A DNA stretch of 64,000 nucleotides from Candidatus Omnitrophota bacterium (GCA_016206925.1 JACQQS010000037.1:838-64837); one strand, 5' to 3'. Numbered from the stretch's first letter, positions 7,063 through 61,811 are shown. A program made the numbers and translations. The notes: generated by a model from the sequence alone, not told the origin.

Positions 7063-7175
7063 GTCATTGCGAGCGACATCAAGAACGCAGCCGGGGCATC
7101 TTGCCCCGGATTAGCTCTGCGGGGCGAGACGCCCCGCCTACGTGATCGTCGCACCTTCGGCTGCCTCGCAATGAC
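7063..7175. mobile_element. MITE-like palindromic element, subfamily A (copy A1, 113 bp)
   Basis: Termini GTCATTGCGAG (7063) and CTCGCAATGAC (7165..7175). Internal twin hairpins CCGGGGCA-TCT-TGCCCCGG and GCGGGGCG-AGA-CGCCCCGC. Near-identical to copy at 33468. Confidence 0.8.
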
Positions 7176-7929
7176 AACGAATATTTTGTTTGTATTGTTT
7201 TTCTTCGCACTTCTTTGTGATCCGTTGGCGGCGGAGACTATTGATCTCTTTAGCACCGCGCAGGCGGAGTACAAGGGAGGCCGTTATCAGGAGGCCATTA
7301 ATTTATACGAGCAGATGCTGAAAAGCGGTCAGTTGTACGCGGTCGTTTATTACAACCTGGGCAATGCGTACGCGAGGGTGGGCGATCTCGGAAAAGCTGT
7401 TTTGAATTTTGAAAGGGCGCGGCGTCTCAATCCAAGGGACCCGGAAATTCTGAACAATCTCGGGTACGTGAACGGCCTGCTTGAGCAGCAAATCGCAGAC
7501 ACCCGGCCCGCTGTTTTGATCGGCCTTAACCGGATTCTGGACTTTACGAGCGCGATGGAAACGGAGCTGCTCAGCCTGCTTTCCTACACATTGTGGATAC
7601 TTGCCTATATTTTGCATCTTCTTTTGAAGCGGCCGCGCTGGATGAAACGGATTTCGTCCGTTACCTTTTTCGTTTTCTTACTTTCCACTTCTGCGGCTGT
7701 GTTGAAGCATTTCGTTCTCCGGGAGGAAAACGCGGTCGTCGTGGAAAAAACCGCGGAAGTTAAATACGGACCTTCGGAGCATGACAAGACAGCTTTCAAA
7801 CTTACGGCAGGTTTGCCCGTATTTGTCCGGGAGAAAAGAGATTTCTGGTCCCGAATCGAGCTCCGAGACGGAACCGGCGGCTGGATTTCAAATGAAGCGA
7901 TAGAGCCGGTGTATCAAAAAGCACCTTAG
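7171..7929 (+). CDS. BatE-like TPR plus SH3b protein
   Basis: Start at the ATG inside the MITE right terminus gives MTTNILFVLFFFALLCDPLAAE signal peptide. TPR repeats (YYNLGNAYARVGDLGKAVLNFERARRLNP), TM helices, C-terminal SH3b-like WSRIELRDGTGGWISNEAI. ORF track start 7045 reads through the MITE. Confidence 0.65.
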   Translation: MTTNILFVLFFFALLCDPLAAETIDLFSTAQAEYKGGRYQEAINLYEQMLKSGQLYAVVYYNLGNAYARVGDLGKAVLNFERARRLNPRDPEILNNLGYVNGLLEQQIADTRPAVLIGLNRILDFTSAMETELLSLLSYTLWILAYILHLLLKRPRWMKRISSVTFFVFLLSTSAAVLKHFVLREENAVVVEKTAEVKYGPSEHDKTAFKLTAGLPVFVREKRDFWSRIELRDGTGGWISNEAIEPVYQKAP

Positions 7930-7964
7930 AATACTTAAGGTACCACTTTCAGGGAGAATAGGTT

Positions 7965-9269
7965 ATGAGCGGATATAAAAAAATTGGCGAAGCGGAATTA
8001 AAAATCGAGAATAAGGTTATCAAGCTGCCACTCTTCGAAGGCGCGGAAAAAGAGCATGCCATTGACATCGGCAATCTCCGGTCTGAAACCGGCAGCATTA
8101 CGATGGATCCGGGTTACGGAAACACCGGTTCCTGCTTTAGCTCAATCACGTACATCGACGGAGAGAAGGGAATCCTCAAGCACCGCGGCATTCCGATCGA
8201 AGAACTTGCCGAGAAATCCTCATTTCTTGAAGTTTCGTACCTGCTCATTTACGGGCATCTGCCGGGCAAGAAAGAGCTGAATGATTTCACGACAAGCGTT
8301 ACGCGGCATTCGATGATACACGAGGATATGAAACGGTTTTTCAACAATTATCCAGCCACAGCGCATCCCATGTCCATCATTTCCTCCATGATCTGCTCGC
8401 TGTCGAGTTACTATCCGGACTGCTTCAACTCGGATCCCGCATCCGTGGACCTGAATATTGCCCGCCTTATTGCCAAGGTGAATACAATCGCGGCATTTTC
8501 CTACAAGAAATCAATCGGCCAGCCGTTCATCGGTCCCATCAACCGCCTGAGCTACGTTGAAAATTTTCTGCACATGATGTTTGCCGTTCCTGCCGAACCG
8601 TACACGGTGGAGCCGGTTTTCGCAAAAGCGCTCGAGCTTTTTCTCATCCTGCATGCCGATCACGAGCAGAATTGCAGTACTTCCACCGTCCGGATGGTGG
8701 GTTCCAGCCTGGCCAATCTGTACGCGTCCATCTCCGCGGGGATTTGCGCGCTTTGGGGGCCCCTCCACGGCGGTGCGAACCAGGCCGTTATCGAGATGCT
8801 AACCCGGATTGAGAAGGAACGCATGGACGTGAAGGACTTTGTCCAGCAGGTAAAAGACAACAAGAAATCCGGGATCCGTCTAATGGGTTTCGGCCACCGC
8901 GTTTACAAAAGTTTTGATCCCCGCGCCAAAATTTTGAAGAAAGCCTGCGATGATGTTTTGAAAAAAATCGGCAAGCACACGGCTCTTCTGGATATTGCAA
9001 AGCGTCTTGAGGAAACGGCGCTGAAAGATTCCTATTTCATCGAGCGGAAACTTTATCCGAACGTCGACTTCTACAGCGGCATTCTCCTCCAGGCCATCGG
9101 TATTCCGGTCAATATGTTCACCGTTATGTTTGCCATCGGCCGGATGCCGGGCTGGATCGCGCAGTGGAAAGAAATGCTTGAATCGCCGGATTTAAAGATC
9201 GGCCGCCCGCGCCAGATTTATACCGGTCCGGTCACGCAGCCTTACGTACCCATCGATCAGCGGATTTAG
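7965..9269 (+). CDS. gltA: Citrate synthase
   Basis: ITYIDGEKGILKHRGIPIEELAE, LILHADHEQNCSTSTVR, GPLHGGANQAV, MGFGHRVYKSFDPRA are canonical citrate synthase motifs. Confidence 0.95.
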   Translation: MSGYKKIGEAELKIENKVIKLPLFEGAEKEHAIDIGNLRSETGSITMDPGYGNTGSCFSSITYIDGEKGILKHRGIPIEELAEKSSFLEVSYLLIYGHLPGKKELNDFTTSVTRHSMIHEDMKRFFNNYPATAHPMSIISSMICSLSSYYPDCFNSDPASVDLNIARLIAKVNTIAAFSYKKSIGQPFIGPINRLSYVENFLHMMFAVPAEPYTVEPVFAKALELFLILHADHEQNCSTSTVRMVGSSLANLYASISAGICALWGPLHGGANQAVIEMLTRIEKERMDVKDFVQQVKDNKKSGIRLMGFGHRVYKSFDPRAKILKKACDDVLKKIGKHTALLDIAKRLEETALKDSYFIERKLYPNVDFYSGILLQAIGIPVNMFTVMFAIGRMPGWIAQWKEMLESPDLKIGRPRQIYTGPVTQPYVPIDQRI

Positions 9270-9330
9270 TGCCCTGGTGACTGTCCCTTTGCGAAAGAGT
9301 GTCACCCCGTGCACACCCTGTACACGGTGA

Positions 9331-14640: not shown

Positions 14641-15532
14641 TCGATTGACGCAGAAAATTAGGCAGGCGCGGCGGGAGGGGCGGAAACTGCTTTGCGCCTA
14701 CATTACGCTCGGATTTCCCAATCTTTCGACGACGGAGAAACTTTTGGCAGGACTTGACCGCGCCGGCGTGGATATTCTGGAGCTCGGATTTCCTTTCTCC
14801 GATCCTCTGGCCGACGGCCCGACGATTCAAGCAGCTTCGGAACGCGCGCTTAAACATTCGATTACGATCGACATTGCGCGAAGCATTGTAGCCAAAGCAC
14901 GCAAGCGCGGCGTTGCAATGCCGATTATCTTTTTTTCCTACGTCAATCCAATACTTCAATACGGCCCGAAACGTTTTGCCAAAGGCATTCGCCGGGACGG
15001 ATTTGACGGCGTGATCATTCCCGATTTGCCGCCGGATGAGGACCCCGCGCTGGTTGACGCTATTCAGCGGGCTGGGCTTTCGTTCGTTAATCTGGTTGCG
15101 CCGACTTCTTCAAACGAACGCATGAAATTTCTCGCGCGGAAATCAAAGGATTTCATTTATTACGTTTCGCGGCGCGGCGTGACGGGCGAGCGGAAACAAT
15201 TTGAGCAGGGAATGGATCGGAATATTCGCCGCCTCCGGAAATTTTCCAGAAATCCCATTCTGATCGGATTCGGCGTTTCAAGTCCCGAACAAGCAAAGTC
15301 AGCTTCGCGGGTCGGCGATGGCGTCGTTGTCGGAAGCGCATTCATAAGTGCCATCCGGCAAGCCAAGGGCGGAACCGCGTCCGTTGTTAAGCTCGCGCAG
15401 AAATTTTCTCGCGCTGTGCACGGAAGGGCGTCATTGCGAGCCCCCGATTGCGTAGGCCGGGCATCTTGCCCGGCAATCCGGGGCGAGACGCCCCGGCTAC
15501 TGGTTGCGCCTGTGGCGAACTCCTCGCAATGA
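14624..15532 (+). CDS. trpA: Tryptophan synthase alpha chain with a MITE-encoded C-terminal tail
   Basis: [41 protein letters not shown] motifs. The last 34 codons and the TGA stop (15530..15532) lie inside MITE copy A2. Confidence 0.9.
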
Positions 15533-15533
15533 C
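15430..15533. mobile_element. MITE-like palindromic element, subfamily A (copy A2, 104 bp)
   Basis: GTCATTGCGAG at 15430, CTCGCAATGAC at 15523..15533. Twin hairpins GCCGGGCA-TCT-TGCCCGGC and CCGGGGCG-AGA-CGCCCCGG. Confidence 0.8.
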
Positions 15534-29944: not shown

Positions 29945-30004
29945 GCAAGTCGGTTTGTGCAAGTCGGTGCAAGTCGGTTTGCAAGTCGGTGTTTGCAAGT
30001 CGGT
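29945..30004. repeat. Five direct copies of GCAAGTCGGT
   Basis: Copies start at 29945, 29959, 29969, 29981, 29995 (spacings 14, 10, 12, 14 nt), ending 3 nt before a TTGACA hexamer. Confidence 0.9.
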
Positions 30005-30007
30005 TTG

Positions 30008-30036
30008 TTGACAGCGTTTTACACGCGTGTTAGACT
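30008..30036 (+). promoter_or_regulatory. Putative sigma70-type promoter TTGACA-17-TAGACT for the beta-oxidation operon
   Basis: TTGACA 30008..30013, 17-nt spacer, TAGACT 30031..30036. About 140 nt upstream of the thiolase start. Confidence 0.45.
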
Positions 30037-30174
30037 TTAAACGTATTAAGCTGTAATATAAACTTATATGCAGAAAGGACTTAAGATGCGTTTTAGCCAG
30101 TTTCTTCGAAAAGGAACTGGTTTTTAATTTTGGGTCTGGAAACAAGCGGATTTTTTAACACAAGGACGTTTGGA

Positions 30175-32595: not shown

Positions 32596-32650
32596 TGCAG
32601 GCGGGGCATCTTGCCCCGCAGATCCCGGGGCGGGACGCCCCGGCTACGCG
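32596..32650. repeat. Solo twin-hairpin core of MITE subfamily A (no termini)
   Basis: GCGGGGCA-TCT-TGCCCCGC and CCGGGGCG-GGA-CGCCCCGG followed by CTACG, in the 81-nt gap between two operon genes. Confidence 0.7.
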
Positions 32651-33467: not shown

Positions 33468-33578
33468 GTCATTGCGAGCACAAGAACGTAGCCGGGGCAT
33501 CCTGCCCCGGATTAGCCCTGCGGGGCGAGACGCCCCGCCTACGTGATCGTCGGCCCTATCGGGCCTTCTCGCAATGAC
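33468..33578. mobile_element. MITE-like palindromic element, subfamily A (copy A3, 111 bp)
   Basis: GTCATTGCGAG at 33468, CTCGCAATGAC at 33568..33578. Core almost identical to copy A1. Lies intergenic inside the operon. Confidence 0.8.
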
Positions 33579-42586: not shown

Positions 42587-45500
42587 ATGACGGCCAAAAA
42601 ATACCGGACACTAAAGCGATTACTCGCCGCCGTTCTCTGCGTGACGATGACCGCAACCAGCGTGCCCGCTGGTTCAGCGGGCGTCGTAAACGACGCCCCT
42701 ACAACCATGTTACCTTACCATGACATCACCATAGCCATCCCAGCCGAAATTGGCACTATCAGCGAACGCCGTGACCGAAAAAGAAGCAAAACAATCATCT
42801 ACATTCAAGACGCGCACGATTCCCTGGAAGCGCAGGAAAATATTGCCAAGCTTATCAACCACCTCGTTGAAAATTACGGAGTCAAAACTGTTTTTGAAGA
42901 AGGCTACGAAGGGAAAGTTCCCACGGATGATTATTTCAGTTCGATCAAGGATCCGAAGGCTCGTGAGAAGGTTTCCTACTTTTTGTTAGATAAACTCAGA
43001 ATCGGAGGCGCCGAGTACGCGCACATTAACCGCAAAAAAGATTTCAAACTTATCGGTGCCGACAACATAAAACTTCATTTGGAAAACGTCGATTGGTACC
43101 GCAAAGCCGCCGAAGACAAAACAACTACCGAAAAGGATCTCGCCGCGCTTCACTTTCACATTGAAAATCTAGCCTATCGCTATTTTCCGGAAGAGCTGAA
43201 AGAGTGGATGAAGTTCAAAGAAAAATTCGATCGTGGCGAGCTCGATCTGGTTGGTTATCTTGACCGGGCAAGAACAGTATTTGTTCAAAAAATAGGCGCC
43301 GAGACATTCCAGCAAGAATATCCCCACATTGAACTCCTTCGGTTTGCCGGGAACACCGATGATCCGGAAATTTACGAACAGGTGAAGACCGTAAAGCCCG
43401 TCGCGTTATTTCAAGAAATCGACCGGATGGAAAATGAATTTGCAATGACCGTCATTGCGAGGAGCGCCGAAGGCGCGACGAAGCAATCTCCCACCAGCTC
43501 TGAGATTGCTTCGCCCCCTGCGGGGGCTCGCAATGACGTTTTATTAAAAATATTTGATTATTACAAAGGCGTTGCGCTGATCAAGCGGCTTTCGAATATC
43601 GAGATCAACTCGGATGAATTCGAAGCGGTCAAAGATACGCTTGTGCGGCTCAAGACCGAGCCTCTTGCGCATTTTATTTCCGATCGAACCAAAAAATCCG
43701 TGGTGCTTTCCAAGCGTTGGGAAGTGCATATTCAAAACGCAATCGAATATTACGAAACTTCCCGCAAGCGCGACGACGTCATTAAAAAGGAATTCACCGA
43801 TTTTCTCACAAACTCTAGCGAAGATACGGCCGTTCTTGTGTTCGGCGGATTCCATAAAGACCGCATTAGAGAAATTTTCCGCCAAACCGGGGTTTCGTAT
43901 GTGATCGTCACTCCTAAAATCACCGAATTAAATCCAAAGCACCGAGATTACTACAAGCAGCTCATGTCCGTCGGCCGCCACTCGTTTGAAGTTCCGTTCA
44001 GCGTAAGCACCGGTGCGCGTCCGCCGAATAGTTTTGAAATAAACGGCCGCGATTTTGTTCTGGTGCTGAATAAAGCTATCTCACGCACACCCAATACAGA
44101 TTTACGAAATCCCATTTCCATGAGACAGCTCGAAGAATCGCTTGCGCGCGGCTTCGGCGCGGCGGGAGAGTTGTCATTGCGAGGAGCGGAAACCTTTGAG
44201 GCGACGCAATCTCGGGTCCGCCCGGAGATTGCTTCGCCTCTGTCGGGGCTCGCAATGACGCGCGCTTTTTCCGGCTTTGGCGCGGGGGGAGAAGAGATAT
44301 CTTCGACCGGAAGCACTTCGAATATACTACGGACCGCATCGGAGATAGTGGATGAATTAAAAAAACAACCGGAATGGGACGAAAGCGCCGGTGCTTTGAA
44401 TGCGTTGGGGAAAACGCTTTGGGCATTGAGGGGCCGATTTGATGAGGCAGCGCGTAAGAAAATTGAATCTGTACTTGAGAAATTACGCAGCAGGACAACT
44501 CCGCCGGATTCCAAATGGCGGATCGACCCCAGCGGCCGTCCCCACCCGGCTGTGGCGGTTGAAGCAGGTACCTACAAGGATAGAGAAGTGCTCACGCGCG
44601 CTATATTTTTCAAGCCGCTGGCAAAGCTAATCAAACACGTAGGTATTGATAACGTTAAAACGGAGCTCGTTAAATCACATTCCCGCGAGGTTGCCGTTAT
44701 TCTCAACGAAGTGATTCGGGTACTCCGAAAGCAGGTTTTGTCTGACAGCCGCGCGCCGCCGGTCGAGAAGCCGGCTCGTGTGTCAAGGCCGCAGGTTGTG
44801 AAAACTCTTCTGATTGCCGGCGCTTTTTTTTCCATTGCCGTTCTCTTCGTGACCGCATTCGTTTCTCTGCTCAACCGAATCGAACCCGCCCAATACCGGC
44901 CGTTAGCGTCCGTCCAAGCAACTGCTTTGCCTGAATTTCCGTCTGCCGAAGCATATCAAAAGATCGCCTTCTTTACTCCCGGTGAGTTTCGATCAGCCAA
45001 ACCCTGGCTCAAGCCTGTTCTCGGCCATAGCGCTGTTACCGATCCCGCTTTTTACGCGCGCGCTCAGAATATGAAAGTTTTTGCACTGGAAGGTCCGCTC
45101 GTTCCCGGTGAAATTTTCTACACCAGCATTTTAACATGGATGGATGAAAATGGAGCCCTTCATCCTGCGCAAGATATGGAGGAGATTTCTCAAGGGAACG
45201 CAACCGGAGAAACCGTTACCGTTCGCGCCGCATTGGAAAATGTCCGCCAGGGCGATCAACTCGAACTTCTGCGCGTCGTGAATGGAACGGTTACGGATAT
45301 TCAGTATGACAAGACACTCCTTCGTTTCGATGAACAAACCGGGCGGCTTGTGGGCATCCGGGACGAGCGGCCGGATGAAACATCCTCTATTGCCTGGACC
45401 ATTAAGCGGTATTCGAGAAACAATATGTATCGGTTTTCTGAGAGGAGTGTACCTGAGCGGGAGCTTGAAACACTTCCCGACGTATTTAAGCGCATTCTTG

Positions 45501-48500: not shown

Positions 48501-51500
48501 TCTTTGCAGGCAAACCGGACGACGAGAATTACGCCGCGTCCGTTTCCTGGCTGCCGCTTACGGATCGTATCCTGGTGCGCTTTAAAGCGCGCGATCAACT
48601 GCCAAAGGATTTTTTTGCGCCTACTGCGCCGGCTGATTACGATTATTATCACTTCGTACTGCCCGAAGATATCACGTGGAAGGAGTTGATTCGGTTCAGG
48701 AATGTATTGGCTAAATTGCCGCAAGGCTCCCAAGGCACCCTTTTCTCACGCTTGAGCAGGCGTTACAAAACAGCGGCTATCTATCTAGCCCGGAATATGG
48801 AAACGCAAAAAGCCTCAGACACCGTTCAGGCCTTCATCTCGTTTCTACATGCCGTAGGCGCATTCCTGGAAGATGCCGGCGAAAACTCCGAGCCGGTCTT
48901 TCTATCCTTAGAAGAAATAAAAGCCAAGCCTCTTACCTCAGTAGAGGAAAAAGAAGCCTCGGGCTGGCTTGGTATCGATCAAGAGAAAATCGGAAACTGG
49001 CAGAAGAAGTTAGATGGCAACGAGGCGCTCGCCCGACGCTTCTTCTCAAAACTCAGCCGCCCGCTGCTCAACTCAGCCATTCAGACAGCGCGCATTGAAA
49101 TAGAAGCTGTTACGTTTCAGCGCGGCTTTCGGTTACTGGCCCAACAGCTTATCGGTGACGAAGGTCGTATCACGATCGATCTAGACCGCCTCAAGAGCAA
49201 TCTCCGAGCCGTGGAAGGAAAAACAAAGGATGACATTGCGCAAATACAAATCGAGACCATTGAAGAAGTACTCAAATCCGTCCGCACGCTTCCGGGCTGG
49301 ATTAAGGAAGGGTACGAGCGTCTTCTCTTTGAATCTTCTCCCACCCATGCTCGAGCTATGGGTGAGCTTAACTGCGTGGGCCGATGCGGTGCTGTGGCCG
49401 AATACCTAACGGATATCGGCATACCGCTTTCACTTGTAGATGTGCAACTGTTTCGGCACAAAGCAGGAGATGGACAGCATGTTCTTTTGCTTGCGTATTT
49501 AGCAAACGGAGCATTTTATTGGGTTGAACCGTCCACACGCCTTCTAACGTTTGATGGTTCCCTCCGGCCCGCAGAATTTGACGATATTCCCAAACTTGAA
49601 GGGCATGTTTTTGAGCTTTCGTACGATACGTATCTTAAACGGTTCAACGTTATGCCGCTGCACGTTGGTCTTCTTGCTTACTTCTACAACAACCTAGGCC
49701 TTCGCTTGCTTGAACAAAAACGATACGATGAAGGCGAGGCTTCTTTACGTAAAGCCATTGAACTAGTCCCCGAACTTTCTTTAGCCCACAATAACTTAGG
49801 CCTTCTCTTGCGTGAACGAAATCGATACGATGAAGCCGAAGCTTCTTTCCGCAAAGCCATTGAATTAAATCCCGACTCCGTCTTAGCCCACAAAAACCTG
49901 GCCAATCTTTTACGTGAACTAAAGCGAAACGATGAAGCCGAATTTCATGAACGCAGAGCCATTGAACTTGATCCAAAGTATGTCCAAGCCAAGAAAAAAC
50001 TAGCTTCTTACCGCGAAGCCGTTGAACTGGATCCCCAATCTGCCTTAGCCCACAGCAATTTAGGCAGTGCTCTGCATATTTTAAGAAATTATGGCGAAGC
50101 GGAAGATCATTTTCGCGAAGCCATTAGATGGGACCCCCGATACGCCGAAGCTTATAAGAACCTGGGTCTTCTCTTGAGTGAACAAGGGCGGCAGAAAGAA
50201 GCCGAAGAGTACATGAACAGGTTCATCGAAATCCAGCGCCGAGCTGCCATAGCTCGCAGCAATCCAGGCATTCCCTTGCCTGACCCAAAACAATACGGCA
50301 ACGCCGAAGCTTCTTACCGTGAAAATGTTGAACGGGATCCCCAATCTGCCGTAGCCCATTTCAACCTCGGCTTTCTCTTGCACTATTTAAAACGATACGC
50401 TGAAGCCGAAGCTTCTTACCGCAAAGCCATTGAATTGGATCCCCAATACGCCGAAGCTTATAAAAATCTGGGCAATCTCTTGACGGAGATAGCACGGTAT
50501 ACTGAAGCGCTGGAGATTTTTACTAGAGCCGCTCAAATTAATAGTCCAACATCGTCCGGCTTCGGCGCGGCATTGAAAATGGATATGAAAACGGTCTCCG
50601 AGGAGCCGGAACTTAAGCTAGAGTTGGCTGTCTCAAGAAGCAGCCACAAGGCTGGTTTTGGTGCGGATGCCGCAGGCAAAATTTCTGAACTGGAAAAGCA
50701 GACTGCTATTGAAGGGTTGATGAACAAGCTGGTCCGGCATGGCTGGATGAAAGGGCCGGTCAAAGATAAATTGAGAATACTTTATAGCCCGGAAGAAGAA
50801 CTTCTTAGCGTGGGTCCCTATAAGATGCTTCAAGAACATTACTTACACGACTTCAAAGTATTGTCCATTCACTTGGACCGGATGTTGAGCGGGCCTGTTC
50901 TAGAGCATATCCTTAAACAAAATCTTCTCAAAGAAACTCCAGCTTTTAAGGTTGTTACAACCTTCAAATCTCTCAGAAAAGACACAGAAGCTGGCTTCGG
51001 TGCGGAGCGCGGTGCATACGACTCTGCGCCCAAGCAGATTCAGATAAAAGGATTGCTGGAACGGCTGGAAAAGATAAGGGAAACGGTAGAAAAGCACCCG
51101 ACGCTTCCAAACGAGCGTTGGAAGGAGCTGCTTACCAAACTTGACCAAGTCTGGCCGCTGCTCAGGACGGAGAATTATTTTGAAGCGGCCGAGCAGCTAA
51201 GAAAACTTGTTCATGACCCCGTTGTAATTCATGATCAAGAGAGATATCTTTCCCGAAGTTCTATTCGATGGCTTGCCAATGCTATTGAGCGCGCGTCTGT
51301 TCCCGAAGAATTGCTTCAGTGGTTTCGTGAAAGTCACCGAAGACAGCCGGATAAAAATGGAGATCGGTACGAGGTGCTTGATGCGCTGGTAAAGAAAGTG
51401 TACGGCGTAGAGCTTGGCGAGGTGATGAGGAAGATTAAATTTGCGGATGCTGATGAAATAAAGCAGACGCCAAACCAGCCTATTTTTGTCGAAGCCATTT

Positions 51501-52846
51501 TGGAATGGCGAAACAAGAAACAGTTCGACTTAATTTTTTACCGTTACGCAAACATCTATCCAGTTGCAAAATGGCCCGCCGGCAAAATCCCCATGTTAAG
51601 CATTCCGTTCGGAATGTCTCGACACTTTGGCCCAGCGGCTTGGACCCTTTTCATTAATCATTTCGCTAGAAAAGTTTCTGCCGCAAGGGATCACCACGAT
51701 CATCGCACCTCCGGCTTCGGCGCGGCCTTAGCATCGTTTGAGCAAACGGAATGGATTTACGACGGGAATATTTCGGTAGAGGACAGAGAGGCCCTGTTTG
51801 ACATTATTGAGCAGCGCGGTCTGTCGCTGCATTTTAAGTTGATGGATGACTACATTCCCGGATGGATACGAAGCGCAGTGGTGAAGCGGCAGAATACTGC
51901 TGTGGGCGGCTTTTTCTTTGAAATGGAAGACTCAACAAGGATTTCCAAAGATGGTAGACCGGGGCTAGCCTACGTTTATGGGTACGTCGCGGTGAACAAT
52001 TATGTTGAGGGTCAGGGACTTGGCGGACGCCTTGTCGACGAACAGATTCGTCTTATGAAAGAGGATCGGCGCAAGTTTGATACGGCCATTGTTTTTCACG
52101 TAACACAAAGCGCGGTTAATTTACGGCTCAAGCGAGGCGGAAAAATTGTGGAAGAATCTAAAGGACCCTCTGGGAATAAACTCTACAACATACGCATCAC
52201 TCTTACGAGCCAATCGCATGAAACGAATAACGAAATAGCCGGCTTCGGCGCTGAGGAAGCGGTTGGAATAATGCGAACCGGTTCCCGGTCCGGCTTTGGC
52301 GTGGCGGAAAGCGTTACGAATCATAAGCTGTATACAGAAATAGATATTGCGATGGTAGATCATGTACGATCGGATGTTGTTTTCTCAATGGATGCCAAGA
52401 CAATTCAAAATCTTTCGCCGGAGAAATGGACGGAGCTTTTAGCGCTTAAGGCGCTTAATCAAGAGAAGCTTCATATTTTGATCCGCTACGATCGGATTGA
52501 AGAGCTGGCGGCGCCGCGCGTGGAAGAGCTTCGGAATGATTTCAAGAATGTGCGCGTTGGAGTTTGGAGTAATCGATTGCCTCAAAACGCGCCGGTGTTT
52601 TATTTCTCCGATCCGACTGAAGGAATTCATCCGAGCAAACGGCTTGATCCGCAACTCGCGCGCCGCATTAACGGAAGGTATTTTGGTTTGCTGTTTGGCG
52701 TAGCTCTGCTTTACGAATTTCACGAAGAAAAATTGCCCGGCCTTATGAAGATGAACGGCTATTGGAACGATCCCACCGGTTGGTATGCTTCGGAAGTGTT
52801 GAGCCTTCTATTCAACAGTTACGTCGCCGTTGCCCGCGCTGCGTAA
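42587..52846 (+). CDS. Giant modular secreted/membrane protein (3,419 aa) with GFGA-linked modules
   Basis: Uninterrupted 10,260-nt ORF. Signal peptide MTAKKYRTLKRLLAAVLCVTMTATSVPAGSAG, TM at about aa 740-762, two transglutaminase/papain-like C-H-D/E cores, receiver-like segment, TPR array, GNAT-like segment, eleven GFG[AV] linkers. Antisense ORFs are short and low-complexity. Confidence 0.85.
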   Translation: MTAKKYRTLKRLLAAVLCVTMTATSVPAGSAGVVNDAPTTMLPYHDITIAIPAEIGTISERRDRKRSKTIIYIQDAHDSLEAQENIAKLINHLVENYGVKTVFEEGYEGKVPTDDYFSSIKDPKAREKVSYFLLDKLRIGGAEYAHINRKKDFKLIGADNIKLHLENVDWYRKAAEDKTTTEKDLAALHFHIENLAYRYFPEELKEWMKFKEKFDRGELDLVGYLDRARTVFVQKIGAETFQQEYPHIELLRFAGNTDDPEIYEQVKTVKPVALFQEIDRMENEFAMTVIARSAEGATKQSPTSSEIASPPAGARNDVLLKIFDYYKGVALIKRLSNIEINSDEFEAVKDTLVRLKTEPLAHFISDRTKKSVVLSKRWEVHIQNAIEYYETSRKRDDVIKKEFTDFLTNSSEDTAVLVFGGFHKDRIREIFRQTGVSYVIVTPKITELNPKHRDYYKQLMSVGRHSFEVPFSVSTGARPPNSFEINGRDFVLVLNKAISRTPNTDLRNPISMRQLEESLARGFGAAGELSLRGAETFEATQSRVRPEIASPLSGLAMTRAFSGFGAGGEEISSTGSTSNILRTASEIVDELKKQPEWDESAGALNALGKTLWALRGRFDEAARKKIESVLEKLRSRTTPPDSKWRIDPSGRPHPAVAVEAGTYKDREVLTRAIFFKPLAKLIKHVGIDNVKTELVKSHSREVAVILNEVIRVLRKQVLSDSRAPPVEKPARVSRPQVVKTLLIAGAFFSIAVLFVTAFVSLLNRIEPAQYRPLASVQATALPEFPSAEAYQKIAFFTPGEFRSAKPWLKPVLGHSAVTDPAFYARAQNMKVFALEGPLVPGEIFYTSILTWMDENGALHPAQDMEEISQGNATGETVTVRAALENVRQGDQLELLRVVNGTVTDIQYDKTLLRFDEQTGRLVGIRDERPDETSSIAWTIKRYSRNNMYRFSERSVPERELETLPDVFKRILDPAKDRDAPAKVNAIRTIFRKYFSYALIKFRKSENETWGEKARDTLGRQDRIRCDCDVLATYLFLFARYLDLPANVLIGLLNNDQNIFLTINEGHAANMVAIQVEGETIWFSWDVTADTALDEEEKVRREQLAKLRAEEKTTSMSRAAVARSVAQDIGFLTATLRQRTGGSQDGRPLTPLEKVVLYDIYGLELFSEDKRVLGESSLEERLAALDRWVTGWPNSRTKDEARRDASRLIEALNRTLDTEDGELPGSLALSREAWLHAMHILHEMARLSYPNFYLEYDAAWRSLLTQLVDHYFRAIYPGIDRDRDREREGEMAELSEFFSKSAIWGIVPLRDYVDLLIFERILRTHGKLVPQDIPFLDALLSRSNQTLDVLERAILAMAQHESLTSEELTFLGRAEQLYVELLDHIEYWDRGDRYHQFKEKVKAAGMEEAFKPIREAREEKMKGWEESDRRWKEKSEQKNTEESGFGATSQNKEPFSGGGTEELGTLPDVVRHEHEFGKGGGEASKSQEGRVSGVFASESGQSKTLYQPQVSEVLLRLLRPFVQPSFSSLHSNYPSINVTNMNVQTVILNFISNWTRKLAAKRLAKMTLAQSIRVFATRFLFPWLNKFMGYLPVWNLISLWRGSVKRLAKYNEIVNRNMIINNYPSRATTAGFGAASQNEEPSSEHSAEGGASKEDSREAPLTEPEEKDGLRVLVVGDSPLVRSYESALIQLKGEKHIFIRRANSLYRAISYLNKQDTEPPEIVMVSMRKLSDERISDKSKGKFYESLPGIAYPKIVVPDLEGRRRELTPQGLKTIARAVDRAWALKHFSAEDFPKHARELVTLHPDEAEDLPAGFSLEDVTQFYLAIRDVIGIDTVHAILVIKLDSFDVIHKADSDYIIVPVGEGETDTIVPVYVGFRGDVWSFYDASRRSDLVRTMIDSFRVAAKAEELAGDPQKVMWQVALRLTLRRFNPDGTLRGSPPTGFGASVQGQAAAFFNQLANTPVFTTENDRLFFAGKPDDENYAASVSWLPLTDRILVRFKARDQLPKDFFAPTAPADYDYYHFVLPEDITWKELIRFRNVLAKLPQGSQGTLFSRLSRRYKTAAIYLARNMETQKASDTVQAFISFLHAVGAFLEDAGENSEPVFLSLEEIKAKPLTSVEEKEASGWLGIDQEKIGNWQKKLDGNEALARRFFSKLSRPLLNSAIQTARIEIEAVTFQRGFRLLAQQLIGDEGRITIDLDRLKSNLRAVEGKTKDDIAQIQIETIEEVLKSVRTLPGWIKEGYERLLFESSPTHARAMGELNCVGRCGAVAEYLTDIGIPLSLVDVQLFRHKAGDGQHVLLLAYLANGAFYWVEPSTRLLTFDGSLRPAEFDDIPKLEGHVFELSYDTYLKRFNVMPLHVGLLAYFYNNLGLRLLEQKRYDEGEASLRKAIELVPELSLAHNNLGLLLRERNRYDEAEASFRKAIELNPDSVLAHKNLANLLRELKRNDEAEFHERRAIELDPKYVQAKKKLASYREAVELDPQSALAHSNLGSALHILRNYGEAEDHFREAIRWDPRYAEAYKNLGLLLSEQGRQKEAEEYMNRFIEIQRRAAIARSNPGIPLPDPKQYGNAEASYRENVERDPQSAVAHFNLGFLLHYLKRYAEAEASYRKAIELDPQYAEAYKNLGNLLTEIARYTEALEIFTRAAQINSPTSSGFGAALKMDMKTVSEEPELKLELAVSRSSHKAGFGADAAGKISELEKQTAIEGLMNKLVRHGWMKGPVKDKLRILYSPEEELLSVGPYKMLQEHYLHDFKVLSIHLDRMLSGPVLEHILKQNLLKETPAFKVVTTFKSLRKDTEAGFGAERGAYDSAPKQIQIKGLLERLEKIRETVEKHPTLPNERWKELLTKLDQVWPLLRTENYFEAAEQLRKLVHDPVVIHDQERYLSRSSIRWLANAIERASVPEELLQWFRESHRRQPDKNGDRYEVLDALVKKVYGVELGEVMRKIKFADADEIKQTPNQPIFVEAILEWRNKKQFDLIFYRYANIYPVAKWPAGKIPMLSIPFGMSRHFGPAAWTLFINHFARKVSAARDHHDHRTSGFGAALASFEQTEWIYDGNISVEDREALFDIIEQRGLSLHFKLMDDYIPGWIRSAVVKRQNTAVGGFFFEMEDSTRISKDGRPGLAYVYGYVAVNNYVEGQGLGGRLVDEQIRLMKEDRRKFDTAIVFHVTQSAVNLRLKRGGKIVEESKGPSGNKLYNIRITLTSQSHETNNEIAGFGAEEAVGIMRTGSRSGFGVAESVTNHKLYTEIDIAMVDHVRSDVVFSMDAKTIQNLSPEKWTELLALKALNQEKLHILIRYDRIEELAAPRVEELRNDFKNVRVGVWSNRLPQNAPVFYFSDPTEGIHPSKRLDPQLARRINGRYFGLLFGVALLYEFHEEKLPGLMKMNGYWNDPTGWYASEVLSLLFNSYVAVARAA
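43451..43537. mobile_element. MITE-like palindromic element, subfamily B (copy B1, 87 bp) in frame inside the giant ORF
   Basis: GTCATTGCGAGG ... GAAGCAATCTC ... GAGATTGCTTCG ... CTCGCAATGAC. 87 bp = 29 codons, read as VIARSAEGATKQSPTSSEIASPPAGARND. Confidence 0.8.
44173..44259. mobile_element. MITE-like palindromic element, subfamily B (copy B2, 87 bp) in frame inside the giant ORF
   Basis: Same termini and a GCAATCTC/GAGATTGC inner inverted repeat. 87 bp, but entered at codon position 3, read as SLRGAETFEATQSRVRPEIASPLSGLAMT. Confidence 0.8.
49660..50545 (+). repeat. TPR array inside the giant ORF with 102-nt periodicity
   Basis: Units starting 49721, 49823, 49925 (102 nt = 34 aa apart) are alignable at nucleotide level by eye (CGATACGATGAAGCCGAAGCTTCTTTCCGCAAAGCCATTGAA...). 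Consensus peptide Y.EAEASYRKAIELDP..A.AH.NLG.LL. Confidence 0.8.
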
Positions 52847-55466: not shown

Positions 55467-55979
55467 ATGCTTTATCACGTTGTCGCGATGGCGAAGAACC
55501 GCGTCATCGGAAAAGAAAATAAGCTTCCCTGGCATTTCTCATCGGACTTGAAACATTTCCGCCAGCTGACGACCGGTCAGACGGTTATCATGGGCCGAAA
55601 AACTTTTGAGAGCATCGGCAAACCGCTGCCGAACCGAGAAAACTTCGTCGTATCCCGCTCGCGGGGCGTGGGCGCCGAAGGTCTTCGATTTTTTAACTCA
55701 CCCGAGAAGGCATTTGAAGCGGTCAGGACGGATAGCGCGTACATCATCGGCGGTGCCGATCTTTTCCGGCAAACCATGGAGGGGATAAACGGAATTTATC
55801 TGACGCTGATCGAACAGGCATTCGAAGGCGACGCATTTTATCCGCAGATTCCCGAGTATTTCGAGAAACGTTCAAGTCATTTGCTCCAGGAGAATCCTAT
55901 GATCAGGCTAATTTTTTATGAGAATACGAAAAATAACTTCCTCCGGACGGAAGAGATTAGAAGGGTGGAGAGAAAATGA
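55467..55979 (+). CDS. folA: Dihydrofolate reductase
   Basis: IGKENKLPWHFSSDLKHFRQLTTGQTVIMGRKTFESIG, PLPNRENFVVSR, YIIGGADLF. Confidence 0.9.
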   Translation: MLYHVVAMAKNRVIGKENKLPWHFSSDLKHFRQLTTGQTVIMGRKTFESIGKPLPNRENFVVSRSRGVGAEGLRFFNSPEKAFEAVRTDSAYIIGGADLFRQTMEGINGIYLTLIEQAFEGDAFYPQIPEYFEKRSSHLLQENPMIRLIFYENTKNNFLRTEEIRRVERK

Positions 55980-55999: not shown

Positions 56000-56082
56000 G
56001 TCATTGCGAGGGCGCGAAGCGCTCGAAGCAATCTCAGTGCCCGTGGATTGCTTCGTCGGCCTGCTGGCCTTCTCGTAATGAC
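56000..56082. mobile_element. MITE-like palindromic element, subfamily B (copy B3, 83 bp)
   Basis: GTCATTGCGAGG at 56000, inner GAAGCAATCTC / GGATTGCTTCG, degenerate right terminus CTCGTAATGAC at 56072..56082. Confidence 0.75.
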
Positions 56083-56866: not shown

Positions 56867-56985
56867 CGATCTTCCTTACCAAATAAATCATGTTTGCCTG
56901 TTTCAATTTGGGCAGATCTAAAGATGCGAGCTGTTCATCCTGAACAGCTTCTTCCGATCTACCCAAATTGAAGCTGCCCATCCAT

Positions 56986-57058
56986 GGGCCTGTAGCTCAG
57001 CTGGGAGAGCGCTACATTCGCATTGTAGAGGTCAGGGGTTCGACTCCCCTCAGGTCCA
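56986..57058 (+). tRNA. tRNA-Ala (anticodon CGC)
   Basis: Cloverleaf folded by hand: acceptor GGGCCTG/CAGGTCC with G3:U70, D-arm GCTC/GAGC, anticodon stem CTACA/TGTAG with loop TTCGCAT, T-arm AGGGG-TTCGACT-CCCCT, discriminator A. CCA is not encoded. Confidence 0.95.
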
Positions 57059-57115
57059 TGGAGGGACAGGTCCGCGAGTAGGTAATTAATTTGGCCAGTC
57101 ACAAATAACAAAACT

Positions 57116-57457: not shown

Positions 57458-57786
57458 GCGTTCAACACAAAGATTTAGCATCGGGACGTTGGGGTGAAAT
57501 GCCGCTTTGCGAGCAATTAGCCAATATTGGGAGTGAGGTCAGCCGGGCGTTGAATTGGCGGAAGAAGGGGAATGAAGAATATTCTAAACAAGCTGTCTTC
57601 AGGGCGTTGGAATTGTTTGATTTGAGTTTAAGTTCTGCCCGGTCTTTCCCCCGCCTTAAAGAGTTTGCTCGTTTGCGAGAAGCGGTTGTTGATTATTTTC
57701 TGGGGACGAACCAATTTTCGTCTTCCGAAACGCTCTGGCGAAAATATTTTGATCCGTTTAACCACCTCGCGCGAAAACAATATTAA
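57454..57786 (+). CDS. Hypothetical helical protein
   Basis: ATGA overlap with upstream stop. MSVQHKDLASGRWGEMPLCEQLANIGSEVSRALNW. No family assigned. Confidence 0.5.
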   Translation: MSVQHKDLASGRWGEMPLCEQLANIGSEVSRALNWRKKGNEEYSKQAVFRALELFDLSLSSARSFPRLKEFARLREAVVDYFLGTNQFSSSETLWRKYFDPFNHLARKQY

Positions 57787-57787
57787 T

Positions 57788-59572
57788 ATGAAGACTGCGG
57801 AAAAATCTATTCCAGCGGTAACGGAAAGATTCTCGATCCAATTTCCCCGCGTGGAACTGGCGCAGGCGGTGCGCGGCACGATCAAGTCTTTGGAAGGGAA
57901 AGATTTCGCGCGAAGGCTTTGGAATAAGGACGGAACGGTCTGGACTGCGGACAAGGCTGTGCAGGCGGGCATTCGGGGCAGGCTGGGCTGGCTGGATGCG
58001 CCGATGGTTTCGAAAGCAGCGGTTCCTGAAATTAAAAATTTTGCCGAAGAGGTTGTCCGTGAAAAATTCGGCTACGTTGTACTCCTCGGAATAGGCGGAA
58101 GCAGTCTTGCGCCGGATGTGTTCAGCAAAGTATTTAAGCGCCCCAAGGGTTATCCGAAGTTAATCGTCCTGGACAGTACCGATCCGGTTGCCGTTAAGGA
58201 AGTTGAGCAATCCGTTGAACTCAACCGAACCCTGTTTATTGTTTCCAGCAAATCCGGATCGACGATTGAGACCGAGTCGTTCTACCTTTATTTTTACGAT
58301 CTCTTAAAACGAAAGCAGGGTGCCGCAGCAGGCAGGCAATTTGTTGCGATTACGGACGCTGGTTCTTCTCTTGAAAAAACAGCCGGGGAGAATGGCTTCC
58401 GGAAAATTTTCCTTACTCCGGAAGATGTCGGCGGCCGTTATTCCGCGCTTACTTATTTCGGACTGGTCCCGGCCGCGCTGATGGGTATTGATATTGAAAA
58501 ACTTCTTGAGCGCGCCGAAATGGCGGTCCTTGAATCCGGAAGCGACGTACCGATTTCAGCGAATCCAGCCATTCTCCTTGGTGCAGCACTTGCCGAGTCA
58601 GCAAAACTGGGTCGCGATAAACTGACGCTTTATTTTCCAAAAGCGCTTGAGCCGTTCGGTGATTGGGTGGAGCAGCTTGTCGCGGAAAGTACAGGCAAAC
58701 AGGGCAAAGGAGTGTTGCCCGTTGTCTGCGAACCCGGAACGCTTTTAAAATTTTACGGCCAAGATCGGTTCTTTGCCTTTACACGCCTGGCACGAGTGAA
58801 AGGCAATCCGCCGCAGAAGAGGCAAAATGATCTGCTCAAGCTCGGCCATCCCGCCGCTCAGATTGTGCTGAAGGACATTTACGATATTGGCGCACTTTTC
58901 TTTTTCTGGGAGATGGTTACGGCCGTAGCCGGAATTTGCCTGGTCATTGATCCTTTTGACGAACCAAATGTTTCGGAGAGCAAGCAGATCACGAAATCGC
59001 TTCTCGCGAGTTTTGCAGAGAAAGGCAGATTAAGAGAAGACACGGATAGTAGCCCGGGCGTCCCGCCCGGGAGTCTGCGGGGCGAGACGCCGCTTGGCCG
59101 AGCGGCGGTCGGCGCGGCGCCCCGCCTACGCGATGGCATGCTTCCTCGTAGTGACAGTCTTAAGGCGCTTCTCGATACGATTAAACCTGGCAACTACATT
59201 GCTTTCATGATTTTTGGACAGCCGTCGGAGCCCGTTAAGAGAATGTTGAATCCGATACGTGCGGCATTGCTTAAGAAAAAGTGCGTGGCATCAACGGTCG
59301 GATTTGGCCCGCGATTCCTGCATTCAACCGGACAACTGCATAAGGGTGGTCCGGCCGGCGGCCTATTCATTCAAATTGTTCATGAATCCGAAACGGACGC
59401 AGCCATTCCGGGAAAGCCGTACTCGTTTGAAGTTTTAAAGCGCGCACAGGCACTTGGCGATTACGAATCACTTAAGAATAAAAGCCGGCGCATCATCCGC
59501 GTTGCGGTACAAGGCGCTTTTGAAACGGGACTTCGAAAATTTTGCAAAATCTTTTTAGAAAGTTTGGCATAG
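57788..59572 (+). CDS. pgi: Glucose-6-phosphate isomerase (type seen in transaldolase/PGI fusions) carrying a 35-codon repeat-derived insertion
   Basis: ATG 57788. [74 protein letters not shown] track start 57665 overlaps the previous gene. Confidence 0.85.
59051..59155. repeat. Degenerate subfamily A MITE remnant in frame inside pgi
   Basis: CCCGGGCG-TCC-CGCCCGGG hairpin, GCGGGGCG...CGCCCCGC-CTACG with an expanded loop, degenerate right terminus CTCGTAGTGAC (59145..59155). About 105 nt = 35 codons ([36 protein letters not shown]). Confidence 0.65.
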
Positions 59573-61767
59573 CCGCAATTCTGATTCTTTCGGTAACCGC
59601 TCATTTCGGATGCGGTAAGGCCCCGATTAACCTGGACAAAGAAATGCGCAAAAATCGATTGGCAAAAGAAAAAAGCCCCTACCTCCTGCAGCACGCGGAA
59701 AACCCCGTAGATTGGTATCCGTGGGGCGCGGAAGCGTTTGAGAAGGCGAAGAAAGAGGATAAGCCGATGTTTCTTTCCATCGGATATTCCACCTGCCATT
59801 GGTGCCACGTGATGGAGCATGAATCCTTTGAAAACGAGGATATTGCGAAAGTAATGAATGAAAATTACGTGTCGATCAAGGTGGATCGCGAAGAACGGCC
59901 CGATGTGGATCAAATATACATGCAGGCGGTAATGGCTTTGACCGGCTCGGGAGGCTGGCCGCTTTCCGTTTTTATTACGCCGGAACTTAAGCCGTTTTAC
60001 GGAGGAACATACTTTCCGCCGGATGACCGCTGGGGACGCCCCGGATTCAAGTCCTTGCTTCTCTCCGTTGCGGAAGCTTGGAAATCAAAAAGGCAGGATG
60101 TGATCAGCACCGCAGCCGATCTAACGGAAGTGCTCCGGAATATAAGAAAAGACCGGCCGCAGGGTGAATTGGATCAGCTTGTTTTAAAGAAGGCGTTTGA
60201 ACAGCTCCAGATGAATTTTGACGCGCGGTCCGGAGGATTTGGTTCCGCGCCCAAATTTCCTCGGAGCCATCTCCTGTCGCTCCTTTTCCGGTATTGGAAG
60301 CGGACGAAAGACAATGTAGGGGCGGTTCATGAACCGCCCCTACAGATGGCTGAACAAACGCTGGTCGAAATGGCCAAGGGCGGAATGTACGACCAGATCG
60401 GCGGCGGATTTCACCGATATTCCACCGACGCTAACTGGCGCATTCCGCATTTCGAGAAAATGCTTTACGATCAGGCGCTGCTTGCCCGGACTTATCTGGA
60501 AGCATATCAAATCACGAAGAAGGAAACGTACGCAGCCGTTGCCCGTGAGATATTTGAATACGTGCTGCGTGATCTGACGCATCCGGAAGGCGGCTTTTAT
60601 TCGGCCGAAGATGCGGACAGCCTTCCTCCGGGCGGAACGGAAAAAAGGGAAGGCGCTTTTTATCTTTGGAGCGAATCGGAATTAAAGGAGCTTCTCGAAG
60701 CTGATTCCGCAAAGGCAATCATTTATCAATTCGGCGCTGAGCCGGCTGGAAATGCGCGGAGCGATCCGCAAGGTGAATTTAAGGGGTTGAATACGCTTTA
60801 TCAGGCGCATTCCATTGAAGAGACCGCGCGGTATTTGAATTGGTCCGTTGAGAAAACCAAGAATACTTTAGAGCGGTCCAAGAAGAAACTTTTTGAAACT
60901 CGGCTGAAACGGCCGAGGCCGCATTTGGATGACAAAGTCCTCGTGGATTGGAACGGGCTCATGATTTCAAGTTTTGCATTTGGCGCGCGCGTGTTGAATG
61001 ATGATCGTTATCGCCAAGCGGCAGAACGCGCCGCCGATTTTATTTTGTCGCATTTGGTTGCGAAGAATGAAAGGCTTCTACACCGCTTCCGAGATGGGGA
61101 AGCCGGCATCGACGGTAAGCTTGAAGACTACGCGTTTTTTGTGAACGGGCTTCTCGAATTATATGAAGCTACGTTTGATATGAAGTATCTGCGGGAAGCA
61201 AAACGCTTGACGGATATCACGATCGATTTGTTCTGGGACGCCGAGTCCGCAGGATTTTATATGACGCCGAAGGATGGAGAGGCGCTTATCACTCGACCGA
61301 AAGAATTGTACGATGGCGCCATTCCGTCAGGGAACTCGTTTGCTTTGTTGAATTTGCTGCGCCTCGGCCGGTTGACCATGAACGAAGCTTACGAGAAGTA
61401 CGCGGAAAATATGATAAAAGCGTTCTCCGCGGAAGTTGAATCGGCGCCGACCGCGTATCCCCAATTTCTCTCTGCGTTTGATTTTGCGATGGGCCCGTCG
61501 AAGGAAATTGTCATTGCCGGCGGGACAGATGCGACGGGCGCGATTGAAATGATAAATGAAGTTTTCAGCCGATTCATTCCCAATAAAGTTGTTGCGTTTA
61601 GGCCGCCTTCGGAAAGCGCTGTCCGGGACATTGCTGAATTGATTCCCTTCATTGAAGACCAAAGACCGCTCGACGGAAAAGCAACGGCCTATGTCTGTGA
61701 AAACTATATTTGCAAGCTTCCTACGACAGATATGGAACAATTTGAAGCGTTGTTAGATGGAAAATAA
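59542..61767 (+). CDS. Thioredoxin-domain protein of the DUF255/YyaL (SPATA20-like) family
   Basis: [52 protein letters not shown], then a six-hairpin glycosidase-like domain. N-terminal lipoprotein-like signal [13 protein letters not shown]. Confidence 0.85.
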
Positions 61768-61774
61768 TTGTGGG

Positions 61775-61811
61775 GGCGGACGCTGTCCGCCTGGGCGCAC
61801 TGCGGTGCGCC
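61775..61811. repeat. Twin GC-rich hairpins resembling the subfamily A core
   Basis: GGCGGAC-GCT-GTCCGCC (61775..61791) and GGCGCAC-TGCG-GTGCGCC (61794..61811) followed by TCTAC, in the gap before nadE. Confidence 0.5.

Follow-up and report, generated by a model that had tools for sequence, protein, structure and literature searches.

Palindromic repeats of one family are scattered over a stretch of 64,000 nucleotides from a Candidatus Omnitrophota bacterium (GCA_016206925.1 JACQQS010000037.1:838-64837), which we call the window. An initial annotation had listed six full copies and called the family MITE-like (MITE, miniature inverted-repeat transposable element). When both strands of the window were searched for the end sequence of the copies, the 11-mer GTCATTGCGAG with up to one mismatch, 12 matches were found where 1.24 were expected, and 0 of 100 shuffles reached this number. 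The 12 matches paired into six elements with exact 11-nt inverted ends GTCATTGCGAG/CTCGCAATGAC; all six listed copies were recovered in place, with a count of ends far above chance. Each of them folded with a minimum free energy of -44 to -64 kcal/mol (z -4.7 to -7.4), and none of 200 shuffles folded as well as any copy.

The copies took two forms (Table 1). Three B-type copies had an inner stem that was formed by the inverted repeat CGAAGCAATCTC/GAGATTGCTTCG and separated from the outer stem by small GC hairpins. The 43451 copy (copies are named by their first position) ran from the head GTCATTGCGAG through a GC hairpin with a GAA loop and the inner arm CGAAGCAATCTC to an 11-nt loop, and then through GAGATTGCTTCG and a second GC hairpin to CTCGCAATGAC. 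In the three A-type copies, twin GC hairpins took the place of the inner repeat. These were inverted units of the repetitive extragenic palindromic (REP) kind with a GTAG head, for example GTAG-CCGGGGCATCCTGCCCCGG … GCGGGGCGAGACGCCCCGC-CTAC. Five doublets of the form GTAG/GCAG-hairpin … hairpin-CTAC were present; all were heterodimers in the same order on the + strand, the hairpin with the CATCTTG loop coming first. The common orientation claimed for all copies was thus borne out by the five GC-hairpin doublets; a near-perfect palindrome has no definable orientation.

The GTAG doublet also occurred alone (32597, 59049), at two places where terminus-less cores had been reported, and the possible third core corresponded to a variant doublet. 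Among the 289 copies of our anatomy survey, inner arms were truly lacking only in the three A copies of the window, the other copies flagged being point mutants. The A type is a chimera seen only in the window, with GTCATTGCGAG/CTCGCAATGAC ends around a GTAG-type REP doublet. The 7063 and 33468 copies were 90% identical over 84 nt, junctions included, which indicates that the chimera was copied as a whole, and the 59049 copy is a decayed A copy. The earlier description of two subfamilies of one element was right about the two forms and imprecise about the one element, since the A type combines the ends with a separate family of GTAG-type REP doublets. Such doublets are normally linked to REP-associated tyrosine transposases (RAYTs). 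No RAYT or TIRYT homologue was found in the window or in 240 element-centred loci (~2 Mb) by tblastn with 11 sequences from PMC3733652 (E<1e-3).

Table 1. Repeat copies and related hairpin doublets in the window, in order of position
Feature	Position	Strand	Remarks
A-type chimeric copy	7063..7175	.	113 nt; GTAG-type REP doublet core 7087-7141
A-type chimeric copy	15430..15533	.	104 nt; core doublet 15452-15500
Stand-alone GTAG-type REP doublet	32597..32647	+	GCAG-GCGGGGCATCTTGCCCCGC … CCGGGGCGGGACGCCCCGG-CTAC
A-type chimeric copy	33468..33578	.	111 nt; core doublet 33488-33542; intergenic
Solo reverse head GCAATGAC	43440..43447	.	Codes part of the FAMT of the host protein
B-type canonical dimer	43451..43537	.	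87 nt; in frame in giant ORF 42587-52846; encodes VIARSAEGATKQSPTSSEIASPPAGARND
B-type canonical dimer	44173..44259	.	87 nt; giant ORF, other reading frame; encodes SLRGAETFEATQSRVRPEIASPLSGLAMT
B-type canonical dimer	56000..56082	.	83 nt; right end CTCGTAATGAC, one G>A-type mismatch
Degenerate A-type copy	59049..59155	+	GTAG doublet (59049-59129) with 26-nt insertion in second hairpin; degenerate right end CTCGTAGTGAC kept at 59145-59155
Variant twin GC-hairpin doublet	61771..61816	+	GGCGGACGCTGTCCGCC, GGCGCACTGCGGTGCGCC, then TCTAC; family membership uncertain

The solo reverse head lay 1 nt from the left end of the 43451 copy, with the flank tttGCAATGACc running into GTCATTGCGAG as a head-to-head junction. 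Together with the next C (43440-43448) it abuts the copy and forms the head-to-head palindrome GCAATGAC-C-GTCATTGC. Either an older unit has left it behind, or it is a target that looks like the end of the element.

Coding context of the window copies

All long open reading frames (ORFs) of the window were on the + strand. Three copies were clearly in-frame insertions in genes and three more overlapped gene ends; clearly intergenic were only the 33468 copy and the doublets at 32597 and 61775, an intragenic fraction that is unusually high for the family. Because the repeat has few stop codons, copies survive in genes as inserts of 28-38 residues. As first described, the copies contained no gene of their own and form a dispersed non-coding palindromic family. 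The overlap with coding frames had been missed, as had one further base of the element's end and the different repeat family in the A core.

The 43451 and 44173 copies were both in frame, in two different frames, inside one 3419-aa ORF. In an alignment with 13 homologues, the 29 residues from the 43451 copy were inserted into a conserved N-terminal domain and had no counterpart in any of the 13, and the 44173 copy fell in a variable linker region. One homologue (P0005) had its own independent insertion, and its DNA (L330) contained two in-frame single units, (C)GTCATTGCGAG-hairpin-CGCGGCAATCTC. The giant protein has a signal-like N-terminus and an N-terminal domain common to Omnitrophota proteins of ~430-1330 aa, and its homologues make Candidatus Omnitrophota the likely origin of the window. 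Residues 978-1085 weakly match a transglutaminase core, and residues ~2370-2640 form a TPR array that is coded by diverged 102-nt tandem repeats at 49687-50508 (repeat families D1-D3). Inside the 5' end of its ORF, at 42664-42698, two overlapping GC hairpins, GCCCGCTGGTTCAGCGGGC and GGGCGTCGTAAACGACGCCC, are followed by CTAC and possibly represent another REP-like doublet. The 59049-59155 copy was in frame in a PGI-like ORF (57665-59572), in which homology to solved PGI structures ended before the copy.

At the 15430 copy, a trpA-like ORF continued across the element and stopped at the TGA within its terminal AATGAC; homology to solved TrpA structures stopped near residue 265 and the element began at residue 269. 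A ruvX/yqgF-like ORF started at the ATG in the same AATGAC (15527-15533), and this ATG and the TGA stop at 15530 form an ATGA stop/start overlap recreated by the element. At three copies in all (also 7171-7175 and 56078-56082), the ATG supplied by the terminal AATGAC was in frame with the protein encoded downstream, which was ruvX-like once and had a signal-like N-terminus twice. The 7063 copy lay in the 5' part of ORF 7045-7929, upstream of a hydrophobic signal-like segment, and the 56000 copy lay between an ATG at 55976 and such a segment, the terminal ATG being in the same frame. The lengths of these two copies are not multiples of 3, yet the ATGs at 7045 and 55976, both preceded by a Shine-Dalgarno sequence, stay in frame through the element. 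The public gene call for the ORF at 55976 (205 aa) takes in the 56000 element.

Among the intergenic copies, the 33468 copy stood 15 nt after a stop at 33452 and 17 nt before an ATG at 33596. The 32597 doublet lay directly upstream of the ribosome-binding site of an enoyl-CoA-hydratase-like ORF, and the 61771 doublet in the gap from a stop at 61767 to a likely start, MKPLNIAIAQ. A tRNA-Ala (CGC) at 56985-57059, ~900 nt downstream of the 56000 copy, was the one RNA gene found. Elsewhere in the window, GCAAGTCGGT(T/G)T(T)G stood three to four times in tandem at 29945-30018, between an ORF end at 29931 and an ORF start at 30130, possibly as a regulator-binding array.

The repeating unit and its link to GIY-YIG nuclease genes

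We searched one-genome-per-species contigs with the pattern GTCATTGCGAG-N61-91-CTCGCAATGAC, for which we estimate a chance expectation of ~1 in 596 Gb. At least 120 stretches in species-genome contigs matched, and at least 120 in IMG/VR viral contigs; the copies are thus not confined to the window, and the wide distribution that had been suspected was confirmed. The family spans at least 15 bacterial phyla, plus viral contigs. Among the matches listed were Alphaproteobacteria (many Bradyrhizobium, Sphingomonads, Micavibrio, Rickettsiales/Tisiphia), Gammaproteobacteria (Coxiellaceae, Legionellales), Bacteroidota, Patescibacteria, Chloroflexota, Planctomycetota, Desulfobacterota, Clostridia, Zixibacteria, Margulisbacteria, Ignavibacteriota and Campylobacterota. 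Matches were rare in curated phage genomes (only 6 records, with half-unit matches) and in plasmids (11 records, none annotated at the match). Outside the window the copies were mostly intergenic: only 9 of 137 were bordered on either side by an open frame of 80 codons or more, and this count is a maximum, since spurious open frames arise in GC-rich genomes.

Unusual arrangements were seen at several loci (L043:2729-2790, L228:680-1167, L120:1617-2511, L178:8930-9091, L219:300-1000), including half-unit arrays ~200 nt apart, a 5-fold tandem repeat inside a loop and a tandem duplication of 238 bp in which the element was included; in Sphingobacterium, four tandem heads GTCATTGCGA followed each other at 17-18-nt spacing. 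Sister families with the same GTCAT…ATGAC ends and other palindromes (ATTCCCGC/GCGGGAAT; ATTCCGAGCG…GAGGAATCC) adjoined or nested with the GTCATTGCGAG family in Tisiphia and Anaerolineales loci (L053:2681-2843, L110:2138-2260, L088:4635-4824), which indicates that several specificity classes can coexist in one genome.

Flank statistics were taken from 143 copies from many genomes. Position -1 was C in 69% and T in 27%, and position -2 was a pyrimidine in 76%, so that the true end is (C/T)GTCAT and the real head CGTC/TGTC, the GTC of the head being invariant by design of the search. The ATGAC end of the element was considered as a possible duplicated target; the flanks held only the pyrimidine (Y) at position -1. 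No target-site duplication (TSD) was present in 132 of the 143 copies, and the distribution of exact flank repeats equalled that of a shuffled-pair control, in agreement with the first impression that no consistent TSD exists.

In the anatomy survey, GCAAT/ATTGC inner arms were found in 238 of 289 copies. The three bases after GCAAT were CCA in 236 and CTC in 125 of ~476 tails, the eight commonest triplets all starting with C; the window copies had CTC. The arm types CGAA-, CGTG- and CGCG-GCAAT paired freely with themselves and with one another in homo- and heterodimers, and the module that repeats is therefore the half element, here called the unit, and not the dimer. The spacer between head and tail was mostly CGNAGCGAA or GAGCGNAGCGACGAA, giving a GCGNAGC mini-hairpin whose N was free (A 63, C 28, T 9, G 8); this motif is known as an unusually stable DNA mini-hairpin (Hirao et al.). 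Some units had a longer GC hairpin instead, often with a GAA loop. A unit of 30-45 nt thus consists of the head (C/T)GTC, ATTGC…GCAAT around a small GC or GCGNAGC mini-hairpin, and then C (tail CCA or CTC); it can also be written GTCATTGCGAG…GCAATCTC, with the end variants GTCTTTGCGAG, GTCATCGCGAG and GTCATTCTGAG. The window copies are inverted tail-to-tail dimers of such units. A literature search for the end and arm strings returned unrelated primers only.

Two published groups of repeats bear on this layout. CGTC-tagged REPs (Di Nocera et al. 2013, PMC3733652) have a CGTC/TGTC head, a stem starting with AT, a CCA tail and structured spacers, and are mostly dimers; they correspond to Neisseria dRS3 and Rickettsia RPE-4/RPE-6, have no associated transposase, and encode 20-30 residues where they lie in frame inside genes. 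The extended dRS3 repeat CGTCATTCCCGCGMAVGCGGGAATCYRG, termed NTS, was studied by Chenal et al. 2025 (PMC11893778). NTS is a target of SsnA, a single-domain GIY-YIG protein of 94 aa, when present as single-stranded DNA (ssDNA) and in no other form: SsnA binds the repeat and cuts a few nt to its 5' side. Cutting depends on the three bases preceding the palindrome, and binding on the C that follows it. In that work, ssn genes across phyla were flanked by 'Ssn-related motifs' (SRM), and ssDNA binding and cutting by the cognate Ssn was shown for the Neisseria and Wolbachia pairs only. When our unit is folded as ssDNA, ATTGC/GCAAT closes a distal hairpin and leaves CGTC and C-NN unpaired, in the same register as in NTS.

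A tblastn probe found one GIY-YIG ORF among the 240 element-centred loci (L094, Lacinutrix; Pfam PF01541, 4.8e-18). The ATG of this ORF was preceded by a full element at a distance of 8 nt (11 nt start to start), and the 3' end of the gene was overlain by a unit. Extra C-terminal residues of the call (VIASRND…SNL; L094:1560-1650) were read from the flanking repeat unit, so that the nuclease ORF runs into its own repeat. Four other GIY-YIG calls were also longer than the ~95-aa core (P0062, P0083, P0084, P0136; 104-129 aa).

With the L094 protein as query, we collected 80 metagenomic loci encoding relatives at 53-88% identity, whose clade, a candidate for the single-domain cd10448 type, is assigned from the Pfam GIY-YIG match; no solved structure for the clade was found by sequence. 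GTCATTGCGAG/CTCGCAATGAC ends (up to 2 mismatches) occurred within 200 bp of the gene at 72 of the 80 loci, and on both sides at 62. Heads (up to 1 mismatch) were 28-fold denser near the gene (7.86/kb) than more than 400 bp away (0.28/kb). At 23 loci, such as L295, L255, L304 and L282, the gene was inside the loop of one element, between GCAATCC and GGATTGC, and at 20 loci it was flanked by complete short dimers. Relatives at 44-53% identity, from viral contigs, were flanked by other head-GTC…ATC hairpins, including the NTS-like CGTCATTCCCGCGAAGGCGGGAATCCAG, and locus-specific paired end variants existed, for example GTCTTTGCGAG/CTCGCAAAGAC. The matched end variants and the hairpins of the distant relatives suggest that protein and motif change together.

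Neither an IS200/IS605 TnpA nor a RAYT, the partners that had been proposed, was found beside the ends; what stood between them was the GIY-YIG gene. All-against-all clustering of 2423 neighbouring ORFs from 120 loci gave no recurrent neighbour family. End pairs 130-3000 bp apart in the 240 loci included no autonomous element, consisting of chance pairs, half-unit arrays and tandem duplications.

Interpretation and alternatives

Because a GIY-YIG gene is found between the same ends elsewhere, we believe that the element belongs with the CGTC-tagged REPs and Ssn-related hairpin repeats. The window copies are probably gene-less, tail-to-tail dimers of this type of hairpin unit, with a GIY-YIG ssDNA nuclease as the cognate partner. 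The same ends and inner arms bracket or flank the nuclease gene in other genomes, which makes the window copies appear as a gene-less miniature of a unit-ssn-unit module.

By analogy with the homologues, each unit would be bound, while the DNA is single-stranded during replication, repair or DNA uptake, by an Ssn-type nuclease encoded elsewhere in the genome. Each strand of a dimer presents one unit in the active orientation, and the nuclease would then nick just outside each end, on opposite strands, if it acts as the tested homologues do. Copies might multiply when such breaks are repaired or copied by host functions. The A-type copies and the 59049 copy would be a local chimera, in which the heads have come to enclose a GTAG-type REP doublet.

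Several observations weigh against this interpretation. The gene association comes from one protein clade, mainly in Flavobacteriaceae-like loci and not in Omnitrophota, and the ssn gene was absent from the 64-kb window. Only 1 of 240 element-centred loci had an ssn gene; this is expected of a single-copy gene and counts as no support. The SRM pattern HGTCWYN(0-2)YYVSBRHN(0-5)WNVSBRGN(0-2)RNCYNB matched NTS and none of the GTCATTGCGAG units, and gave 0 matches on either strand of the window, which makes the GTCATTGCGAG family a further member of the group and not NTS itself. The canonical short unit was no more stable than its shuffles (z ~0), so recognition might need the dimer, and its own stem is 5 bp (ATTGC/GCAAT, with 7-21 nt between) as against 8-9 bp in the described CGTC/NTS units. 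All-against-all blastn of the loci gave no pair of empty and filled sites, the comparison that had been suggested at the outset, and a Novosphingobium plasmid locus searched against PLSDB for an empty site had no syntenic relative. GIY-YIG nucleases cut DNA but do not join it, and a mechanism for copying is therefore missing.

A role of the hairpins at the RNA level, as terminators, mRNA stabilisers or translational couplers kept by selection and not by a nuclease, is the alternative that survives best, and we consider it unlikely. It would account for the strong folding, for window copies that all lie in one direction of transcription within operon-like gene runs, for the ATGA overlap recreated at 15430 and for the report that REPs lie mostly just downstream of ORFs (PMC3733652). 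However, the folds showed no strand asymmetry, minus-strand folds being as good or better for the A type, and few G-U pairs; the repeats are near-palindromic and occur in both orientations, inside ORFs and in all frames. The repeat had no Rfam match at the gathering threshold, where only the tRNA was returned, and the mini-hairpin of the units is known as a DNA structure. SsnA, moreover, does not bind RNA (PMC11893778). RNA effects may arise as a side consequence.

Less probable still is that the whole family, GTCATTGCGAG ends included, consists of REPINs (inverted REP doublets) moved by a RAYT, an HUH tyrosine transposase. An inverted hairpin doublet without TSD is what this predicts, the A-type cores are typical GTAG-headed REP doublets, and the absence of a RAYT from 64 kb is uninformative because RAYTs are single-copy. 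But the ~2 Mb of element-bearing loci also lacked a RAYT or TIRYT homologue, the GTCATTGCGAG ends were enriched around GIY-YIG genes instead, and Di Nocera et al. (PMC3733652) found no tyrosine transposase beside CGTC repeats. For the GTAG doublet cores alone, mobilisation by a RAYT is plausible.

A classical MITE would be a deletion derivative of an insertion sequence (IS), which a DDE-type transposase, binding to the 11-bp terminal inverted repeats, would move in trans; it calls for both a TSD and a parent IS that encodes a transposase. The perfect 11-bp inverted ends, the small size, the many dispersed copies and the absence of a gene inside fit such an element, and to this extent the label "MITE-like" was apt. 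It fails on the lack of a TSD among the 143 copies and of a transposase parent: the neighbouring ORFs of 120 loci contained no recurrent protein family and no transposase cluster, and the only gene found between the same ends encodes a 95-aa GIY-YIG nuclease. The units also occur singly and as heterodimers. We regard this explanation as very improbable. That the shared ends belong to a conserved protein-coding motif is scarcely credible: several window copies are translated in frame, but they are read in different frames (VIARS…ARND and SLRGA…LAMT), are intergenic in most genomes, occur also in unrelated proteins, and form an insert absent from homologues at the same position.

Beyond the class assignment, the unit-ssn-unit module could be the autonomous form, and the gene-less dimers the miniature forms, of a mobile element whose sole enzyme is the ~95-aa GIY-YIG ssDNA nuclease. 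Such an element, having neither transposase nor TSD, would spread by ssDNA nicks at both ends followed by host repair or replication, pick up foreign cores and settle in frame in genes, with the GTCATTGCGAG family among its most successful lineages. We put this forward tentatively, and as a good deal less likely than the assignment of the window copies to a GIY-YIG-partnered hairpin repeat. The many natural pairs of gene-in-loop and gene-less forms offer material for asking whether Ssn modules are mobile.

In bacterial and metagenomic annotation, few sources of spurious 'hypothetical proteins' are commoner than this repeat (VIASEAKQS…, SLRGA…, …CFASLAMT, …RFARNDG), which bears out the suspicion attached to the VIARS…, SLRGA… and …LAMT peptides of the window. 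With the class assignment and the tie to a GIY-YIG clade, annotators can mask it. The window also indicates that these repeats can sit as 28-38-residue inserts in real proteins and form gene ends. The family, which the published search pattern misses, also adds to the list of candidate pairs of Ssn nuclease and target, and these are of interest for cutting ssDNA at specific sites.

Comparison with known repeat systems

The small form of QMITE2 of Coxiella burnetii (Wachter et al. 2018, PMC5896051) resembles the family by description only, as a REP-like palindrome without terminal inverted repeats or TSD. It is reported to match 83-100-nt Bradyrhizobium sequences, the length of the GTCATTGCGAG family in that genus, and to be a hot spot for IS1111 insertion (PMC5896051); a Coxiellaceae locus (L048) carries the GTCATTGCGAG family. 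The 'widespread MITE' of Cardinium, also considered, is unrelated, being an IS982 derivative.

The Rickettsia palindromic elements (RPE; Ogata et al. 2000/2002) are likewise palindromes inserted in frame that add short peptides, and the GTCATTGCGAG family is present in Rickettsiales/Tisiphia loci (L019, L053, L074); it differs in not being restricted to Rickettsia. Eighteen element-encoded peptides had no match at E<=10 in NCBIfam, a library not checked for RPE domain models. REPIN-RAYT systems (Bertels & Rainey 2011; Nunvar 2010) share the inverted hairpin doublet, the lack of a TSD and a single-copy partner gene flanked by repeats, and the GC-hairpin cores of the window resemble RAYT-linked REPs in their GTAG/GCAG heads. 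The GTCATTGCGAG units, however, are partnered by a GIY-YIG nuclease and not by an HUH tyrosine transposase.

Closer likenesses were found to NTS and the SRM. These too are oriented hairpin units with GTC 5' of an AT…AT palindrome and a C directly 3', dispersed in hundreds of copies and arranged as unit-gene-unit around a ~95-aa GIY-YIG gene, and proteins ~50% identical to the GTCATTGCGAG-flanked ones carry NTS-like flanking units. The 8-bp ATTCCCGC stem of NTS differs from the 5-bp ATTGC…GCAAT around a mini-hairpin, the GTCATTGCGAG copies are mostly tail-to-tail dimers with a variable loop, and NTS is intragenic in 2% whereas the window copies are mostly intragenic.

With the CGTC-tagged REPs, the family shares the CGTC/TGTC(/CCTC) tag (C/T at position -1 in 96% of copies), a stem starting with AT, the CCA tail (50% of units), homo- and heterodimers, small stem-loop spacers, in-frame intragenic copies and the absence of an adjacent transposase. 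The taxa overlap as well (Bradyrhizobium, Micavibrio, Rickettsiales, Sphingomonads, Coxiella). Compared by description and not by consensus sequence, the CGTC-tagged REPs have an 8-9-bp stem with a 4-5-nt loop and mostly 'HH' dimers, whereas the GTCATTGCGAG family has a 5-bp stem, a longer interior and outward heads. The GTCATTGCGAG family does not make a new category; within the CGTC-REP/Ssn-related class it is one more member, and a very successful one.

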